Part shown: piece by piece, positions 3,653 to 56,722 of the stretch
Position numbering within the stretch: position 1 is the stretch's first letter
Layout: the number at the start of each line of letters is the position of its first letter
Assembly: GCA_964443135.1 (NCBI GenBank)
Contig: CAYUBQ010000003.1
Span: forward strand, 62,174 to 126,173
Length of the DNA stretch: 64,000 bases
Direction: 5' to 3'
Origin: an uncultured Desulfobacterales bacterium
GTDB taxonomy: Bacteria > Desulfobacterota > DSM-4660 > Desulfatiglandales > HGW-15
Notes under the pieces: generated by a model
The model's input: only the letters and a program-made list of their open reading frames with translations
Databases searched by the model: none
What the model was told of the DNA's origin: nothing
Made by a program: the position numbers and the translations under genes

Positions 3653-4297
3653 TCAGGCGGAGGCGTGCCCGTCGATCAGCTCCAAAATGCGCGACCTGAG
3701 TCCCTCGATGGTGTACACGTTGAGGTCGATTCTCCGGATCCGGTCCGCGAGGTCGGGCATGCGGAGACCTTCCTCGATCCACCTGGAGAAGTCATTGTCC
3801 TCCAGCTTCTGGAGCCGGGATTCGATGAAGTGCAGGTAGAGGGAGTAGATACTGATCTGCTCGATGTTTTCGCGAAACGAAGCGAGGCTGTAGGCGAACT
3901 TGTCCGTGAGATAGACGACGCGGGTGATGTCGTACAGGTAGAACGGGTCCTCCGCTGTTTTCTCGAACGCCGAAGGCCTCTCCGAGCGGTGGATCTCGAT
4001 GATCTCGATCAGTCGGGATCGCAAATCCTCCGTGGTGCTGTACTCGGAGAAGTCCACGGCCATGAGCTTCTCGGCGAGCGCCTTTTCGTTCAGGCTCGTG
4101 GCCGCCCAGATGGCGAAGTCGCTGTTGTAGGGCACCTCGGCTTCCTTCAGCTTCAGGAAAGCGGAAAAGGTGTGGTAGAAGACGGACGAAGACCGGCAGG
4201 TTCTCAGGAGGTGGAGAAGCTCCTCCAGGTTGTACGCCTTCCGCCCGGTCAGCATCTCCAGGGATGCGCTCGAAGAGAACTGAAATACGTCGGCCAT
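3653..4297 (-). CDS. Conserved hypothetical protein co-oriented with the glycosyltransferase (recalls DUF5752-type partners, unverified)
   Basis: 214-aa ORF with a balanced, non-GC-skewed composition (MADVFQFSSSASLEMLTGRKAYNLEELLHLL...). It ends about 56 nt before the GT start. Confidence 0.65.
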   Translation of the reverse strand: MADVFQFSSSASLEMLTGRKAYNLEELLHLLRTCRSSSVFYHTFSAFLKLKEAEVPYNSDFAIWAATSLNEKALAEKLMAVDFSEYSTTEDLRSRLIEIIEIHRSERPSAFEKTAEDPFYLYDITRVVYLTDKFAYSLASFRENIEQISIYSLYLHFIESRLQKLEDNDFSRWIEEGLRMPDLADRIRRIDLNVYTIEGLRSRILELIDGHASA

Positions 4298-4358
4298 GCT
4301 GCGCCTCGCTTGGGTACCCGCCTCCGGGTTTTCGGAACCGGTCTCGTACGGTCGATCC

Positions 4359-4733
4359 TCAGGGCGACGGGGTCCCGGGTCCCTCGACCGGCGGTCGGGA
4401 AAGGAGGACGATGCCCACGAGGGCGAGGAGGAGGAGCGCCAGGATGGACAGGACGTTCCCCTGAAACACCGAGGGCACCATGAGCGCCCCGAAGACCAGG
4501 GATGCGATCCCGAGGATCTTCCGGCCGATGACCTTGATGACCGCGCCCGTGAGCAGCGCCCCGACGGCCCCGATCAACGTCAGGACCATGATCAGGTTCC
4601 GGGTGCCTGAGGAGAGACCGCCTTCGCCCATTCGGATGGGGCCCGGCCCCGCGCCGGAGCCGCTCCACAGGGCCGCCACGATCCCCAGAACACCTGCAAT
4701 GACCAGAAGTACGACCATGTTCCGTATCCTCAT
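4359..4733 (-). CDS. Small integral membrane protein
   Basis: MRIRNMVVLLVIAGVLGIVAAL... contains 3-4 hydrophobic helices. A GGGAGG RBS lies 8 nt upstream of ATG 4733. Confidence 0.55.
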   Translation of the reverse strand: MRIRNMVVLLVIAGVLGIVAALWSGSGAGPGPIRMGEGGLSSGTRNLIMVLTLIGAVGALLTGAVIKVIGRKILGIASLVFGALMVPSVFQGNVLSILALLLLALVGIVLLSRPPVEGPGTPSP

Positions 4734-4870
4734 TTCATAACCTCCCAGTGCGTGATGGGTCAACGATTTCTCGTGCAGGCTACCTCCCCCGGCGTCTCGG
4801 GGGAATGGGGTCGGGACCCGACTTTCCCCGATTCGGGAGGGGTGGCTCTAGGGGGGGCGGTCGAAACTTG

Positions 4871-5236
4871 CTACAAGGTCTTCAGGTGATCGACGATGAG
4901 GTGCATCTCATCGTGATCGAGCTCGTCCGCAAAGGAAGGCATGTTCTCGTAGGGGTCCTCGAGCTGCCGGCGGACGTTCCCCCCGGTCACGGGCCTTCCG
5001 CTCACCGGGAGGCTCTCCCGTCCGAAGAGACCCTCGAGACCGGGTCCGATCTTGGCTTCCCGGCTCTCCGTGTAGTGGCACTGGGTGCAGCCCGCCTCCT
5101 GGAAGAGGGCGGCCCCCTCCCCGTCCGGCCCGTTCGGCGCGCGGACCAGGGCGCGAAATGCGCCGAGCAGGATCACGATGCAGGCGACCGCGACGACGAC
5201 CCCGGTGGTGGTGCGTTTCAGGTCTGTTTTTCGCAT
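4871..5236 (-). CDS. Monohaem c-type cytochrome, membrane-anchored
   Basis: Has an N-terminal TM helix and a single CTQCH haem-binding motif. It starts 10 nt after the stop of the upstream flavocytochrome gene. Confidence 0.8.
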   Translation of the reverse strand: MRKTDLKRTTTGVVVAVACIVILLGAFRALVRAPNGPDGEGAALFQEAGCTQCHYTESREAKIGPGLEGLFGRESLPVSGRPVTGGNVRRQLEDPYENMPSFADELDHDEMHLIVDHLKTL

Positions 5237-33072: not shown

Positions 33073-33393
33073 GATTGACGCATTCGCAGAAACCCGCTCA
33101 CGCGCCGCTGGGGAGGGTATCACCTGTTGAAATCTCGTGGGCAGATCTCGAGGATTCGGGTTTTTTGCGACTCCATCAGGATTGACGCATTCGCAGAAAC
33201 CCGCTCACGCGCCGCTGGGGAGGGTATCACCTGTTGAAATCTCGTGGGCAGATCTCGAGGATTCGGGTTTTTTGCGACTCCATCAGGATTGACGCATTCG
33301 CAGAAACCCGCTCACGCGCCGCTGGGGACGATATCACCTGTTGAAATTCCAGGGGCAGATCTCGAGGATTCGGGTTTTTGCGACGCCATCACG
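33073..33393 (+). repeat. Tandem array of three 107-bp units (family 1): copies 1 and 2 identical, copy 3 diverged
   Basis: Units start at 33073, 33180 and 33287. Each carries TTGAAA-N17-GAGGAT and the core GCAGATCTCGAGGATTCGGGT(5-6)GCGAC. Confidence 0.95.
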
Positions 33394-33418
33394 ATTCTAC
33401 TCAACGGAGGTTGTGGTC

Positions 33419-34591: not shown

Positions 34592-34623
34592 TCGAAGACG
34601 ATCGCATCGGAGCGGTGAGTGGA

Positions 34624-34848
34624 ATGGACGCCGATCTCCTGCTGTCGGAGGCCGTCGAAGGCGTTCGGCGGAGGCACGGGCTCGGCCGACGGATCTGCCT
34701 GGGGTACGAGCGGCCTCCGGAGCGTTCGGTGGACGGGACCATGACCTGCCCGAGGTGCGGCGGTCTTCTGGACTACACCGTTTCCTCCTACGACGGCGCC
34801 ACCCGCGGTCGGTGCCGGACGAGCGGTTGCCTCCGCTGGACCGAGTGA
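34624..34848 (+). CDS. Small zinc-ribbon protein
   Basis: MDADLLLSEAVEGVRRRHG...CPRCGG...CRTSGC. A GGAG lies 11 nt upstream. An alternative GTG start is at 34615. Confidence 0.4.
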   Translation: MDADLLLSEAVEGVRRRHGLGRRICLGYERPPERSVDGTMTCPRCGGLLDYTVSSYDGATRGRCRTSGCLRWTE

Positions 34849-35011
34849 GATGCTACACCCGGACGGCGAGGGTAGGTCTCGAGATCTTCTCATGGTTCCC
34901 ATGGCTGCCTCCCTGCGTTCTTCCCGGTCCGTTCCGACCCTCACAGGCTGGTCTCGACGGGGCGCCGGGTCGAGATCGGGGCACTACCTCGAAAATCCCG
35001 CACGCTTTTCC

Positions 35012-35039
35012 TTGACAACGGGTCAAACAGGATTAAAAT
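35012..35039 (+). promoter_or_regulatory. Near-consensus sigma-70-type promoter
   Basis: TTGACA (35012..35017), a 16-nt spacer, then TAAAAT (35034..35039). Confidence 0.55.
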
Positions 35040-35224
35040 CCCCTCGGTCTTCGAGCGGTGAGTTCCGCGAACCCCGCGCCGGACGGTCGGATGGAGCCCT
35101 CCGACCCTTCCGCCGCCGGATCCGCGGAGACCGTTTCGAGCAACAGGTGCTCCCTTGGAGCCCGTGCACCCCGAACGTGACGGGGCGCATTCTCTATTTC
35201 GATGGAACTGAGGAGGAAAGAGCC

Positions 35225-35422
35225 GTGCTTTACTACACCAACCATCACCTGAATTTCGTCCGGTCTGCGTCGCAGGTCGGGCTCCCGGCCTCGGGCCGCT
35301 GCCCGTTCTGCCAGGACGAGCTGCCCGACTGCGACTGCGGCTGCGGCACCGCGGGCGGGCGGAAACGCGCCGCCGGAAACAGGGTCTCCAGGCGGCGGAC
35401 GGGGAGAAAGCGGCTGTTCTGA
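35225..35422 (+). CDS. 65-codon Cys-rich ORF with a basic tail (GTG start)
   Basis: (M)LYYTNHHLNFVRSASQVGLPASGRCPFCQDELPDCDCGCGTAGGRKRAAGNRVSRRRTGRKRLF. A GAGGAGG RBS lies 8 nt upstream, and a terminator follows. Confidence 0.45.
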   Translation: MLYYTNHHLNFVRSASQVGLPASGRCPFCQDELPDCDCGCGTAGGRKRAAGNRVSRRRTGRKRLF

Positions 35423-35460
35423 ACCGCACGGACGCGACGCGGGACATCGAGAGGACCCGA

Positions 35461-35487
35461 GGGCGGGATCAAGATCCCGCCCTTTTT
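35461..35487 (+). terminator. Rho-independent terminator
   Basis: GGGCGGGAT-CAAG-ATCCCGCCC followed by TTTTT. Confidence 0.8.
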
Positions 35488-35542
35488 CGTGGCAAGCGGG
35501 CACGGCCGAGCCGCCGCCGAAAGGATGCCGCGTGTTGCCGCG

Positions 35543-35571
35543 TTGACACGGGTCCGGGGGGCGGCTATCCT
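35543..35571 (+). promoter_or_regulatory. Sigma-70-type promoter candidate for the PLD gene
   Basis: TTGACA (35543..35548), a 17-nt spacer, then TATCCT (35566..35571). Confidence 0.45.
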
Positions 35572-35709
35572 TTCGGCAAGCCGTTGGTATCGGAGCGGTC
35601 CCGGGGGACGGAACGGAGCTGCAGTGCTTCTCGTCGCCTCACCGGGAGCGGAGGCGCCTCGGACGGCTTTCTCCGGGATGCCTTTCAAGAGACGGGTTCG
35701 AGGGGATCG

Positions 35710-37833
35710 GTGGACAGGGAAACCGAAAGCGGAAACGGCCGCATTGTCGAGCCGGGGCGAAACTGCTGGCGCACGGAGCGCGCGGAGCGGCTGGCGTTCA
35801 TCGTGGACGCGGCCGGCTACTTCGAGGCCTTCAGACAGGCGGCGAGCCGGGCCGAGAGGAGCCTCTACATCGCCGCCTGGGACATCAACAGCCGCACTCT
35901 TCTGGGGAAAGACGACGACAACCGGGAAGAGCTGGGCGACTTTCTGAACCGCCTGGCCGCCGGAAACCCGGACCTGGAGATTTCCATCCTGTCCTGGGAT
36001 TTTTCCGTGATCTACGTCTTGGAACGGGAGATCCTCCCGCTGTTCAACCTGGGGTGGAAGACCCACCCGAGCATCCGGTTCCGGATGGACGCGGAACACC
36101 CGGTGGGGGCCTCCCAGCACCAGAAGATCGTGGTGGTGGACGATGCGCTGGCCTTCTGCGGGGGCATCGACATCACCAAGAACCGCTGGGACACGCCGGA
36201 GCACCGGGCAAGGGATCCCAGGAGGGTGAACCCGGAAGGCAAGCCCTACCGGCCTTTTCACGACGTGCAGGCGGCCGTGGCGGGGCCGGCCGCCGCCGCT
36301 CTGGGAGACCTGTTTCGCGAGCGATGGCATCGCGCGACCGGGGAGGAGCTGAAGCCGCCGGCCGGCGGAGGAACCTCCCCCTGGCCGCAGGGGCTGCCAT
36401 CCGATCTCGACGACGTGAAGGTGGGCATCGCCAGGACCTACCCCGCCTACAAGGGAAACCCGGAGGTGCGGGAGGTGAAGGCGCTCCACGAGGATGCCAT
36501 CGCCTCGGCCCGCAGGACCATCTACATGGAAAACCAGTACCTGACCTCCCGCGCCGTGACCCGCGCCCTGTCCGAGAGCCTCTCGGCCCCGGATGGGCCC
36601 GAGGTCGTCCTGGTGCTGCCCGGGAGGAGCGACGGGTGGCTCGAGCAGAGCACCATGGACCACCTGCGGCGCCGGATCCTCCAGCACCTCCGCCGGGTGG
36701 ATCGAGGCGGGCGCCTGAGGGTCTACCAGCCGGTCCTCGACCGGTCCGGCACGTCTCCGGTGGTTCACGCCAAGGTCACGATCGTGGACGACCGGTTGAT
36801 CCGGGTGGGCTCCTCCAACCTCAGCAACCGCTCCATGGGGCTGGACTCGGAGTGCGACCTGGTCATAGACGCGGCGGGGGACCCCCGCGTCGAGGAGGCC
36901 GCGGTCGCGTTCCGGGATCGCCTGCTGGCGGAGCATTTGGGAAGGGAGCCCCGGGAGGTCCGGGAAGCCCGGCGGGAGAGCGGTTCCCTGATCCGGACCG
37001 TCGAGGACCTCCGGGGCGGTGAGCGAACCCTGGAACCTTTGAACATCGAGGAAGGCGGCTCCGTGGACGAGCCGGAGTTTCTGTCGGACATCCCGTTCGT
37101 GGACCCGGAGCGCCCGGCCGCGATCGAGGAGCTGACGGACCGGTTCCTGGCCGAAGAAGAGGAGGAGCCTTCCCGCTACCCGATCCTGGTCTACCTGTCC
37201 GTTCTCGGGGGGCTGCTGTTGCTCGCGGCGCTGTGGCGGTTCACCCCCATGGGGGACTGGTTGACGCGGGAGCGGATCCTCGCGCTGGGCGCCCTGCTCG
37301 AGGGCACCCTGGGCATGCCCCTGGGGGTGCTCGCCGCCTACGTAGTCGGCGGCTTGATCGTGCTGCCCGTCACCCTGCTCCACGCCGTAACCGGGGTGGC
37401 CTTCTCCTTCCCCCTGGGGTTTCTGTACGCCCTGTCCGGGTCCCTCCTGAGTGCGGCGGCCACCTACTGGATCGGGCGCCTTCTGGGCAAGGACGCCGTC
37501 CGGCGATTGGGCGGAAAGCGGCTCAACCGGATCAGCCGGCGGCTGGCGCGCCAGGGATGGCTCACCGTGGTGGTGGTCCGGAATCTTCCGGTGGCGCCCT
37601 TTTCCGTGGTCAACCTGATCGTGGGAGCGTCCAGGATCGGTTTCAAGGACTACCTCGTGGGCACCGCCCTCGGAATGGCGCCGAGCATCCTGGCGATCAC
37701 CATCTTTGCGGACCGGCTCTTCCGCCTGATCCGAGAGCCGTCCTGGGGGAACCTCGCCTGGGCCGGCCTCGTGATGGTCTTCCTGGGCGGCGCCGCCTGG
37801 TGGTTGAAGTGGCGTCTCAGGCGCAGCAGCTGA
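35710..37833 (+). CDS. Phospholipase D-family protein (two HKD motifs) fused to a DedA/VTT-type membrane domain
   Basis: HQKIVVVDD and HAKVTIVDD..GSSNLSNRS HKD motifs, then a multi-TM C-terminus (VRNLPVAPFSVVNLIVGAS). Start set at GTG 35710 after GAGGGGA. The longest ORF starts at TTG 35584, but that lies only a few nt after the predicted TSS. Confidence 0.85.
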   Translation: MDRETESGNGRIVEPGRNCWRTERAERLAFIVDAAGYFEAFRQAASRAERSLYIAAWDINSRTLLGKDDDNREELGDFLNRLAAGNPDLEISILSWDFSVIYVLEREILPLFNLGWKTHPSIRFRMDAEHPVGASQHQKIVVVDDALAFCGGIDITKNRWDTPEHRARDPRRVNPEGKPYRPFHDVQAAVAGPAAAALGDLFRERWHRATGEELKPPAGGGTSPWPQGLPSDLDDVKVGIARTYPAYKGNPEVREVKALHEDAIASARRTIYMENQYLTSRAVTRALSESLSAPDGPEVVLVLPGRSDGWLEQSTMDHLRRRILQHLRRVDRGGRLRVYQPVLDRSGTSPVVHAKVTIVDDRLIRVGSSNLSNRSMGLDSECDLVIDAAGDPRVEEAAVAFRDRLLAEHLGREPREVREARRESGSLIRTVEDLRGGERTLEPLNIEEGGSVDEPEFLSDIPFVDPERPAAIEELTDRFLAEEEEEPSRYPILVYLSVLGGLLLLAALWRFTPMGDWLTRERILALGALLEGTLGMPLGVLAAYVVGGLIVLPVTLLHAVTGVAFSFPLGFLYALSGSLLSAAATYWIGRLLGKDAVRRLGGKRLNRISRRLARQGWLTVVVVRNLPVAPFSVVNLIVGASRIGFKDYLVGTALGMAPSILAITIFADRLFRLIREPSWGNLAWAGLVMVFLGGAAWWLKWRLRRSS

Positions 37834-46841: not shown

Positions 46842-46901
46842 GGTGACCTCCGTTTCATGAGAAGTGCGGGAGGCCCATTATAGGAATGCCGCCAGGGGGT
46901 G

Positions 46902-47690
46902 TCAACGAGCCGGCCGGGCCGAGATCTCCTCGAGGAGGTCCGGGCTCGAGGCCGCGGTGAGGCGGAACCGGGTGTCGCGCTGCAGGGGGAAGTCGCGGAA
47001 AGCCTCCCCGTCCACGGCCCACACGCCTCCGGCCTGCTTCAGGATGAACAGGCCGGCCGAGACGTCCACGGCCCGGATGGACCCCCGTTCGTCCACGTGG
47101 GCGTCGAGCGAGCCTTCGGCCACCCGGCACAGGCTCGAGGCCGCGCACCCGGCGGCCCGGATGTGCCTTGCCCGGGTGATCAGGGGAACCATCCTGGAGA
47201 GGTCGTTCATCTTGCTCACGTCCATGGAGATGAGACCGTCGCGGTAGGCAACGGGCCGCGACACCATGACGGGCCGACCGTCGCGCATCGCCCCCCGGAC
47301 CGGGTCGGCCGCGTACGTGGATCCGGACGGCAGATCCGAGACCAGGGCGGCGACGACCTCCGACTGAAACCGGCCGCGCGCGGCGCTGAGGCTCACCACG
47401 CTCGGCGGCAGGCCGCGGGCCAGGTTCGTCGTCCCGTCCACCGGGTCCGCCGTGACGGTGACCTCGCCTCCCCCGAAGGTCTCCTCTCCCTCCTCGCTCA
47501 CGAGCCTGGCGGAGACGCCCCGGCCCCGAAGCGTCTCCACGACGGCCTCGTGGGCCTGGAGGTCCAACCGCTCCTTGAAGGAGGGGATGGACACGGTTCC
47601 CCGTTCGGGGAGCAGATGCCGAATGCGTCCCCGCACGGCGCTCGCCGCCTCTCGGAGGATTTCATGCCAGAAAAGGGAGATCGAATCCAT
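46902..47690 (-). CDS. Inositol-monophosphatase-family phosphatase (IMPase/CysQ-like)
   Basis: SEEGEE, DPVDGTTN and the downstream D..AG motifs of the Li-sensitive phosphatase family. Confidence 0.85.
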   Translation of the reverse strand: MDSISLFWHEILREAASAVRGRIRHLLPERGTVSIPSFKERLDLQAHEAVVETLRGRGVSARLVSEEGEETFGGGEVTVTADPVDGTTNLARGLPPSVVSLSAARGRFQSEVVAALVSDLPSGSTYAADPVRGAMRDGRPVMVSRPVAYRDGLISMDVSKMNDLSRMVPLITRARHIRAAGCAASSLCRVAEGSLDAHVDERGSIRAVDVSAGLFILKQAGGVWAVDGEAFRDFPLQRDTRFRLTAASSPDLLEEISARPAR

Positions 47691-56613: not shown

Positions 56614-56722
56614 GATTGACGGATTCGCAACAACCCGCTCACCCGCCGCTGGAAACGCTATAACCCGTTGACATTACCTGGGCAGATCTCGAGGTTGAGG
56701 CCTTTTTACGACTCCTTCCTGA
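56614..56722 (+). repeat. Dispersed copy of the 107-bp family-1 unit
   Basis: GATTGACGGATTCGCAACAACCCGCTCACCCGCCGCTGG...GTTGACATTACCTGGGCAGATCTCGAGGTTGAGGCCTTTTTACGACTCC. Carries TTGACA-N17-GAGGTT. Confidence 0.85.

Follow-up and report, generated by a model that had tools for sequence, protein, structure and literature searches.

The 64,000-nt stretch of contig CAYUBQ010000003.1 analyzed here (the window; an uncultured Desulfobacterales bacterium, GenBank assembly GCA_964443135.1) carries, at positions 35012-35487, an autonomous one-gene transcription unit with its own promoter, leader, ribosome-binding site (RBS), open reading frame (ORF) and terminator (Table 1). This unit is a real, self-contained gene for a 65-residue, Cys-rich, basic protein of an undescribed family, and its leader may throttle the transcription of its own gene. 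An earlier note on this DNA had placed the promoter, a structured leader, a GAGGAGG RBS, the GTG start codon at 35225, the ORF and the terminator at these positions and had read them as an autonomous unit; all of these elements are present and recur at nine other loci, where both the leader and the ORF are kept, in support of that reading.

Table 1. Features of the transcription unit and their positions in the window
Feature	Position	Strand	Support
Sigma-70-type promoter: TTGACA (35012-35017), 16-nt spacer, TAAAAT (35034-35039)	35012..35039	+	11/12 match, kept in 10/10 loci
Pyrimidine-only discriminator CCCCTC, then GG	35040..35047	+	comparable run in 10/10 loci
P1 closing stem, 5′ strand, UUCGAG-CGGU (UUCGAGCGGU)	35050..35059	+	minimum-free-energy (MFE) fold and alignment consensus
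P1 interior, long irregular GC-rich hairpin, apex GGTCGGA/TCCGACC (35085-35106)	35060..35129	+	folds as a single hairpin
P1 closing stem, 3′ strand, ACCG-U-UUCGAG	35130..35140	+	folds, duplex-energy test
P2, small hairpin GCUCC-CUU-GGAGC	35149..35161	+	predicted in folds; sequence mostly invariant
P3, GC-rich hairpin, core CCCCG/CGGGG, candidate leaky terminator (attenuator)	35164..35190	+	covariation, energy
Pyrimidine/U tract after P3 (UCUCUAUUUC)	35191..35200	+	about 20 nt before the RBS
Shine-Dalgarno sequence GAGGAGG, 8 nt ahead of the start codon	35210..35216	+	AGGAGG core invariant in 10/10 loci
Coding sequence, 65-residue Cys-rich basic protein, GTG start, TGA stop (35420-35422)	35225..35422	+	fixed length, pN/pS, gene calls
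3′ untranslated region	35423..35460	+	31-35 of 37-38 positions kept among close relatives
Intrinsic terminator GGGCGGGAT-CAAG-ATCCCGCCC-TTTTT, 9-10-bp GC stem, then UUUUU	35461..35487	+	fold, homologs

Architecture and recurrence of the transcription unit

Protein and pattern searches yielded nine further distinct loci (L002, L003, which is the L006 contig, L004, L005, and L007 to L011), all from genome bins of uncultured Desulfobacterales, Desulfobacteraceae or 'Deltaproteobacteria' or from metagenomes; counts out of ten refer to the window together with these nine relatives, several of which are closely related to each other. The exact window protein has also been gene-called in public assemblies. 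The order of elements is constant in every locus, namely promoter, pyrimidine stretch, leader, (G)AGGAGG RBS and 65-codon ORF, and chance is far from explaining the unit, given the joint recurrence of its promoter, RBS, ORF and terminator at the nine other loci. The upstream neighbor, in turn, varies: it is an aminotransferase gene in the window and L005, and in L002, L004 and L011 it encodes a methyltransferase, a HEAT-repeat protein and a flavodoxin-like protein, respectively. Even where the neighbor is shared, the −35 hexamer lies about 27 nt past the aminotransferase stop codon in L005 versus about 420 nt in the window. These differences between the flanking genes indicate that the unit travels as a self-contained module.

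The promoter combines −35 and −10 hexamers at a spacing within the 16-18 nt of sigma-70 promoters. Its hexamers and 16-nt spacer are identical in all ten loci, the flanks TTGACAACG...GGATTAAAAT are also conserved, and the pattern across loci reads TTGACA(A/T)CG, a 16-nt spacer and a (G)GATTAAAAT-like −10 element. The promoter scan, which returned 3 promoter-like sites against 0.6 expected in the 10 kb covered, gave the site its score of 11/12. In every locus the −10 element is followed by 5-7 bases that are mostly or wholly pyrimidine and then by GG or GA. Transcription likely starts at G35046/35047, at the usual distance of about 7 nt from the −10 element, giving a 5′ untranslated region (UTR) of about 180 nt in the window (leader of 143-197 nt across loci), and the mRNA directed by the near-consensus promoter would measure about 440 nt. 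Besides its consensus hexamers and 16-nt spacing, the promoter has a C-rich discriminator, and T-tracts precede the −35 element; together these features recall the stringently controlled promoters of ribosomal RNA and ribosomal-protein genes, a resemblance that is no more than a lead. Contrary to the earlier note, it is not the best promoter in the window: a perfect 12/12 sigma-70 consensus (TTGACA, 17 nt, TATAAT) lies on the minus strand (46877-46905), and about 40 nt downstream of it GGAGG precedes a GTG-started ORF with a signal-peptide-like N-terminus.

At its 3′ end, the unit is closed by a GC-rich stem-loop with an immediate U run, and the segment comprising this terminator and its flanks (35450-35495) folds at −21.7 kcal/mol. 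A canonical terminator (folding free energy, dG, of −16 to −26 kcal/mol; at least 4 U) follows the ORF in nine of the ten loci, the exception being L010. The terminator scan flags this 3′ site in L007, L008 and L011; the site at 35461 goes unlisted, probably because full extension of its stem leaves a loop of only 2 nt, below the tool minimum, which is a limit of the tool and not an absence of the terminator. The terminator stem GGGCGGGAUC/GAUCCCGCCC is nearly unchanged even at about 65% protein identity. In close relatives, the intervening 3′ UTR, with the core GGGACAUCGAGAGGA, is about as conserved as the coding region, whereas in distant ones it is unconserved.

A rare family of cysteine-rich mini-proteins

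The ORF at 35225 is protein-coding and under purifying selection. It has exactly 65 codons in all ten homologs, at protein identities to the window as low as 45%, and the ratio of nonsynonymous to synonymous divergence (pN/pS) ranges from 0 to 0.61 in pairwise comparisons, remaining below 1 in all 45 pairs. Between L005 and L009, the nine differences within the ORF are distributed 0/0/9 by codon position, that is, all fall in the third. In-frame selection and conserved length are accompanied by translation signals, with a GTG or ATG start codon 8 nt past the invariant RBS in the homologs, and the translation agrees with the sequence quoted in the earlier note, which had called the ORF coding. 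In the window (35202-35252), an AUG 23 nt ahead of the GTG begins an out-of-frame ORF of 16 codons that runs across the start codon, and the matching upstream AUG in L007, L008 and L011 is in frame, 7 codons upstream. Because this AUG shares the frame of the coding sequence at those loci but not in the window, GTG 35225 stands as the start codon.

The protein contains five Cys in 15 residues (C26, C29, C36, C38, and C40), rather than the six in 17 counted previously. C26, C29, C36 and C38 are invariant in 21 sequences, while C40 is usually replaced by Y or F elsewhere. The invariant residues are laid out as CPxC-x6-CxC (spacing C-x2-C-x6-C-x-C) and are combined with an Arg/Lys tail. Exhaustive profile searches point to a rare family, with about 21 clusters among 5.8 billion, whose members have 62-86 residues and share the core motif CP[FY]C-x3-LPxCDCG[YF]G, also in unrelated, AT-rich genomes. 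The subfamily that bears the leader is further marked by an N-terminal MLYYTNHxLNF and a C-terminal GRKR(L/F/P)F tail (GRARSM in L011). At the sequence level, the four invariant candidate metal ligands, arranged in two pairs, form a zinc-knuckle pattern, suggesting that the protein is probably metal-binding (zinc-knuckle-like) or redox-active, with a Cys4 mini-domain, and the basic tail of the leader-bearing subfamily would suit nucleic-acid binding.

The LPxCDCG[YF]G motif and the C-x2-C-x6-C-x-C spacing fit no described family. In Pfam, the window protein scores at most 14.6 bits where the cut-off is 27, and all matches lie at 13-20 bits against curated cut-offs of 22-27.5. The NCBIfam search of the protein returned no match, the PHROG and PADLOC searches nothing significant, and a literature search with motif strings no papers. 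CPxC and CxC pairs within 60-85 residues are shared with rubredoxin-like knuckles and with the Pfam families zinc_ribbon_16, DUF7501 and Zf_IFT144_1st; in contrast to these Cys4 zinc-ribbon families, from which it is also separated by scores below the curated cut-offs, the protein has a spacing and motif of its own. CP[FY]C is likewise the active-site motif of glutaredoxin, yet no thioredoxin fold was recovered for the window protein, its matches in the PDB sequence search having E values of only 0.3-1.2.

Distant family members are stand-alone small genes without a common neighbor. Three of them (P0010, P0006, and P0008, at L015, L016, and L017, respectively) adjoin glycine-betaine/methylamine genes, encoding OpuAC with an ABC transporter, MttB-family methyltransferases and a corrinoid-binding protein, and in each case the gene has a TTGACA promoter-like site of its own and a leader that is shorter. 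Tad pilus genes lie ahead of P0012 and P0016, and leucine biosynthesis genes form another neighborhood of distant members.

Conserved helices of the leader and their possible role

The leader of the window folds at −89.4 kcal/mol, compared with −75.1 kcal/mol in shuffled sequences (z = −2.9). Rfam 15 has no match in the whole 64-kb window or in the leaders of eight homologous loci, and at E values of up to 10 the region 34600-35750 returned only chance matches far below the gathering threshold; the Rfam comparison suggested in the earlier note thus assigns the leader to no riboswitch family. In comparisons among the loci, two helices of the leader covary, namely the P1 closing stem and the P3 hairpin.

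In nine of ten MFE folds of the 5′ domain taken by itself, P1 forms the outer helix, and it also appears in the alignment folds. Because a covariance model of this domain (R2) proved too specific for the divergent homologs, strand pairing was compared by duplex energy: cognate 5′ and 3′ strands pair at −16.0 kcal/mol versus −10.8 kcal/mol for non-cognate strands (permutation p = 0.00015). The pairing is kept with other sequences in L004 (UUUUC-GGCCG/CGGCC-A-GAAAA), L008 (UUUCGG/CCGAAA), L010 (CUUUUGA/UCAAAAG) and L011 (CUCAGGGG/CCCCUGAG). The helix starts 2-5 nt from the predicted transcription start, and the sequence at its base is conserved beyond the needs of pairing. Its interior, in turn, is the fastest-evolving part (identity of 52/73 between L005 and L009) and changes at least as fast as synonymous sites (29% divergence versus a synonymous divergence, pS, of 0.18 for the same pair), and the whole 5′ domain varies about two-fold in length, from 62 to 117 nt, among homologs.

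Several other pairings were considered and rejected. All complementary segments listed in the earlier note exist, including the closing stem CGGTCT/AGACCG that it proposed, which is possible in the window; full-length folds and the comparison of loci favor instead the P1 register of Table 1, and a reading by eye shows mismatches for CGGTCT/AGACCG in L003, L007 and L009 and no equivalent in L011. A helix joining the extreme 5′ end to the segment before P3 has 7-8 bp in L003, L004 and L011 (partly by eye), is absent from the window group, and would need a transcription start too near the −10 element. Pairing of the 5′ CCCCUC with the RBS, seen in the alignment fold, was discarded because CCCCUC is probably untranscribed discriminator and the pairing of the RBS does not exceed that in shuffles.

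Downstream of P1, covariation is weak for P2, whose sequence is mostly invariant and whose place is taken by other hairpins in L007 and L011. In P3, six of nine pairs have changed on both sides, and for P2 and P3 jointly 80.8% of cells are paired, versus 43-51% with partners slid; the covariation measures for the two hairpins were reached by 0-12 of 500 shuffles. The segment CCCCG-AACGTGA-CGGGGG, singled out previously, is the core of this covarying hairpin. P3 has a dG of −8 to −20 kcal/mol in 10/10 loci, and hairpin and tract are kept throughout. The tract that follows has 5 U among 8 positions in the window and 1-7 in the homologs, with 4-7 pyrimidines. The same rule that finds the true 3′ terminators flags P3 as terminator-like in L007 (tail AUUUUUUU, 7/8 U) and L011 (tail AUUUUUUA, 6/8 U). 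On these grounds the attenuator-like layout noted earlier is reasonable, and the attenuator half of the proposal that the leader resembles a riboswitch or attenuator platform is plausible; that the leader is structured is likewise borne out, whereas a metabolite riboswitch, given the lack of an Rfam match and of a conserved core, is unlikely.

Other modes of control found little footing. ATG-started leader ORFs differ between homologs in frame, stop position and sequence, and none is conserved as leader-peptide attenuation would lead one to expect. Sequestration of the RBS is not significant in any locus, with pairing probabilities of 0.25-0.94 against shuffle means of 0.63-0.82, and masking of the RBS by the tract after P3 was rejected, since shuffled leaders show at least as much pairing. 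Searches with a covariance model built on the 3′ half of the leader gave no match at the distant homologs, which also lack the basic GRKR tail, and, across the window and the searched loci, no convincing additional copy (best other E = 0.007).

The explanation preferred here, held with roughly even confidence, is a monocistronic small-protein gene whose leader combines a 5′ hairpin with a leaky attenuator. The 5′ UTR would open almost at once with the long hairpin closed by P1, followed by P2 and then by P3, which would act as a leaky intrinsic terminator limiting read-through into the ORF. Termination at P3 cannot be complete, because just some 35 nt, with no intervening promoter, separate it from the ORF. 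The 5′-terminal P1 hairpin may stabilize the transcript or serve as a binding platform, and any effector would be a protein and not a small molecule, with the basic product itself as a candidate. A protein effector is more plausible than a metabolite because the hairpin varies in length and has no conserved core, the base of P1 is conserved, and the leader is restricted to the basic-tailed subfamily, although this argument is circumstantial.

Autoregulatory leaders of small nucleic-acid-binding proteins include the L10 and L20 leaders of Firmicutes and the cspA 5′ UTR of Escherichia coli. The unit described here is like these in its strong promoter, its 150-200-nt 5′ UTR with a conserved hairpin domain, its terminator-like hairpin upstream of the RBS, its small basic product and its strong 3′ terminator. 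It is unlike them in that the product is no recognized ribosomal or cold-shock protein, the leader belongs to no Rfam family, and binding of the leader by the product is conjectural. A bolder extension, regarded as speculative and rather unlikely, is that the leader represents a new class of cis-regulatory RNA, in which the basic CPxC-CxC mini-protein from the ORF downstream would bind the base of P1 and P2 and adjust the degree of termination at P3 in an autoregulatory loop; on this reading, the likeness of the promoter to stringently controlled ones would mark the product as an abundant factor, regulated by growth rate, associated with nucleic acids or ribosomes and found solely in a narrow lineage of Desulfobacterales.

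Several considerations weigh against the attenuator explanation and its metal-binding, leader-bound product. The P3 tail is U-poor (1-5 U of 8) in the eight loci other than L007 and L011, the window included, so that P3 may not terminate at all, and folds of the nascent transcript reveal no antiterminator common to the loci and no shared partner for the P3 5′ arm. The P3 alignment, which came from the covariance model of the 3′ half, had been fitted to the very structure under test, so that its figures lean toward that structure, and with only ten sequences, several from close relatives, the covariation statistics are modest. The transcription start, termination at P3 and transcript size are predictions from the sequence, and protein binding to the leader is pure inference. 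The AlphaFold2 model of the product (predicted local distance difference test score, pLDDT, of 55) is unreliable and gives no fold, leaving the Cys pattern alone to suggest a metal-binding one.

A minority possibility of some standing is that the leader is not regulatory at all, P1 being a generic 5′ hairpin against 5′-end-dependent decay, P2 and P3 being stabilizing or incidental, and the promoter alone setting expression. The closeness of P1 to the predicted start, the evolution of its interior at or above the synonymous rate, RBS sequestration no higher than in shuffles and the U-poor P3 tail at most loci are all consistent with this view. It accounts poorly, however, for a P3 whose position, hairpin and pyrimidine tract are kept in 10/10 loci with compensatory changes and which is a textbook terminator in L007 and L011, and for a P1 base conserved past what pairing needs. 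The 5′ UTR of E. coli ompA is the example of a 5′-terminal stabilizer hairpin. The leader resembles it in having a stem within a few nucleotides of the predicted 5′ end and differs from it in the conserved sequence of the stem base and in the further conserved hairpins downstream, any stabilizing effect being putative.

Less probable still is a riboswitch for a small molecule or metal, in which a P1-closed aptamer would decide, upon ligand binding, between the terminator P3 and an antiterminator such as GGUGC/GCACC. The order of elements is riboswitch-like, with a P1-closed 5′ domain, a GC hairpin, a U/pyrimidine tract and the RBS, as in riboswitches with terminator platforms. The earlier note had also pointed to two mutually exclusive pairings, GAGCA/TGCTC and GGTGC/GCACC, whose segments are indeed present; the former, however, occurs only in close relatives and the latter is only partly kept, as judged by eye. 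GGUGC/GCACC flanks P2 and overlaps the P3 5′ arm in the window, L002 and L005, and L003 and L004 have GCGC/GCGC in its place, a U-A to C-G change (both read by eye). In all, 4-5 bp of complementarity flanks P2 in 5-6 of the ten loci, by eye and without a formal count, but it is short, absent or mismatched in L007 to L011, and such complementarity is unremarkable in RNA of about 65-70% G+C. The putative aptamer is one irregular hairpin of roughly two-fold variable domain length, and alignments read by eye show no conserved junction or loops, unlike riboswitches, where a conserved multi-helix junction, an unpaired core and a consistent antiterminator would be expected. The invariant positions seen in these alignments lie in helix bases, the RBS and P3, and neither the Rfam searches, even at the relaxed E value, nor the nascent-transcript folds, with their lack of a common partner for the P3 5′ arm, lend a riboswitch support.

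A dual output, with a stable RNA of about 150 nt that ends at P3 and has a function of its own, alongside a read-through mRNA for the protein, appears quite improbable: the strong promoter, stable 5′ hairpin, terminator-like 3′ end and conservation of the leader as a unit would fit it, but no known small RNA family is matched, no conserved single-stranded seed is evident, and the leader stands directly upstream of the ORF in 10/10 loci, the model of its 3′ half having yielded no convincing copy apart from it in the window or the searched loci. The last alternative, a chance open frame in GC-rich DNA within a non-coding RNA unit, can draw on the many spurious overlapping ORFs on both strands and the lack of protein family matches, but is effectively refuted by the fixed length of 65 codons, the third-position excess, pN/pS values below 1 in 45/45 pairs, the invariant positions of RBS and start codon, and the CPxC...CDCG[YF]G motif in the wider family from unrelated, AT-rich genomes.

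Neighboring sequences and biological significance

About 400 nt separate the aminotransferase stop codon from the promoter in the window (34592-34990), and the absence of this stretch from the close relative L005 indicates an insertion or deletion between the two. The stretch contains a 77-codon ORF (34615-34848) with cysteines arranged as CPRCGG...C...GC, for which zinc-finger matches are only sub-threshold. Upstream of the aminotransferase gene, positions 33073-33396 hold three tandem copies of a 107-bp unit (95% matches), each of which has a CTCGAGGATTCGGG-TTTTTT site resembling a terminator. The core of this repeat (TGGGCAGATCTCGAG) recurs in short, partial and inverted form at 34878-34895 and 34970-34984, and a further exact 10-mer lies at 56684. 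The 10-mer AGATCTCGAG that the earlier note had tied to its family-1 repeat is found at 34878-34887 on the minus strand, as described; the proposed link between the repeat and the unit was rejected, since it amounts to a partial inverted match of 15-18 nt to the 107-bp unit that is unconserved in the homologs. In L004, a group II intron domain (Rfam RF00029, 64 bits; 687-763) and an ISL3 transposase (1532-2768) lie upstream of the unit.

Downstream, seven of the ten loci carry a gene for a PLD-VTT (phospholipase D/DedA-type) fusion with a conserved promoter of its own. In the window, this promoter (35543-35571, plus strand) lies about 55 nt past the terminator of the small gene, and the gene call starts near 35710, implying a 5′ UTR of about 130 nt. 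Equivalent promoters occur in L002, L004, L005, L007, L008 and L009, mostly ahead of the PLD-VTT gene, and the pattern over all these sites reads TTGACAC, 17-18 nt, TATCCT/TATGCT/TATGAT. L005 (about 4265-5191) and L009 (4369-5193) have one extra gene, for 274-308 residues, between the small gene and the PLD gene, with an N-terminus (MQLHCQHCGH...RCPKCKG) resembling a double CxxC zinc ribbon.

Uncultured relatives of sulfate reducers, about whose regulation hardly anything is known, here gain a small protein family that is well supported and a candidate leader RNA, neither of them described in current databases. With approximately ten loci carrying the leader and few protein clusters in the family, the distribution is very narrow, and the general importance is accordingly limited; if the leader were merely a stabilizing UTR, the unit would be an ordinary small gene. 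If, instead, the leader is an attenuator run by the product of its own gene, the unit would provide a compact protein-RNA feedback outside the ribosomal-protein paradigm, and the CP[FY]C...CDCG[YF]G mini-domain would gain a function.

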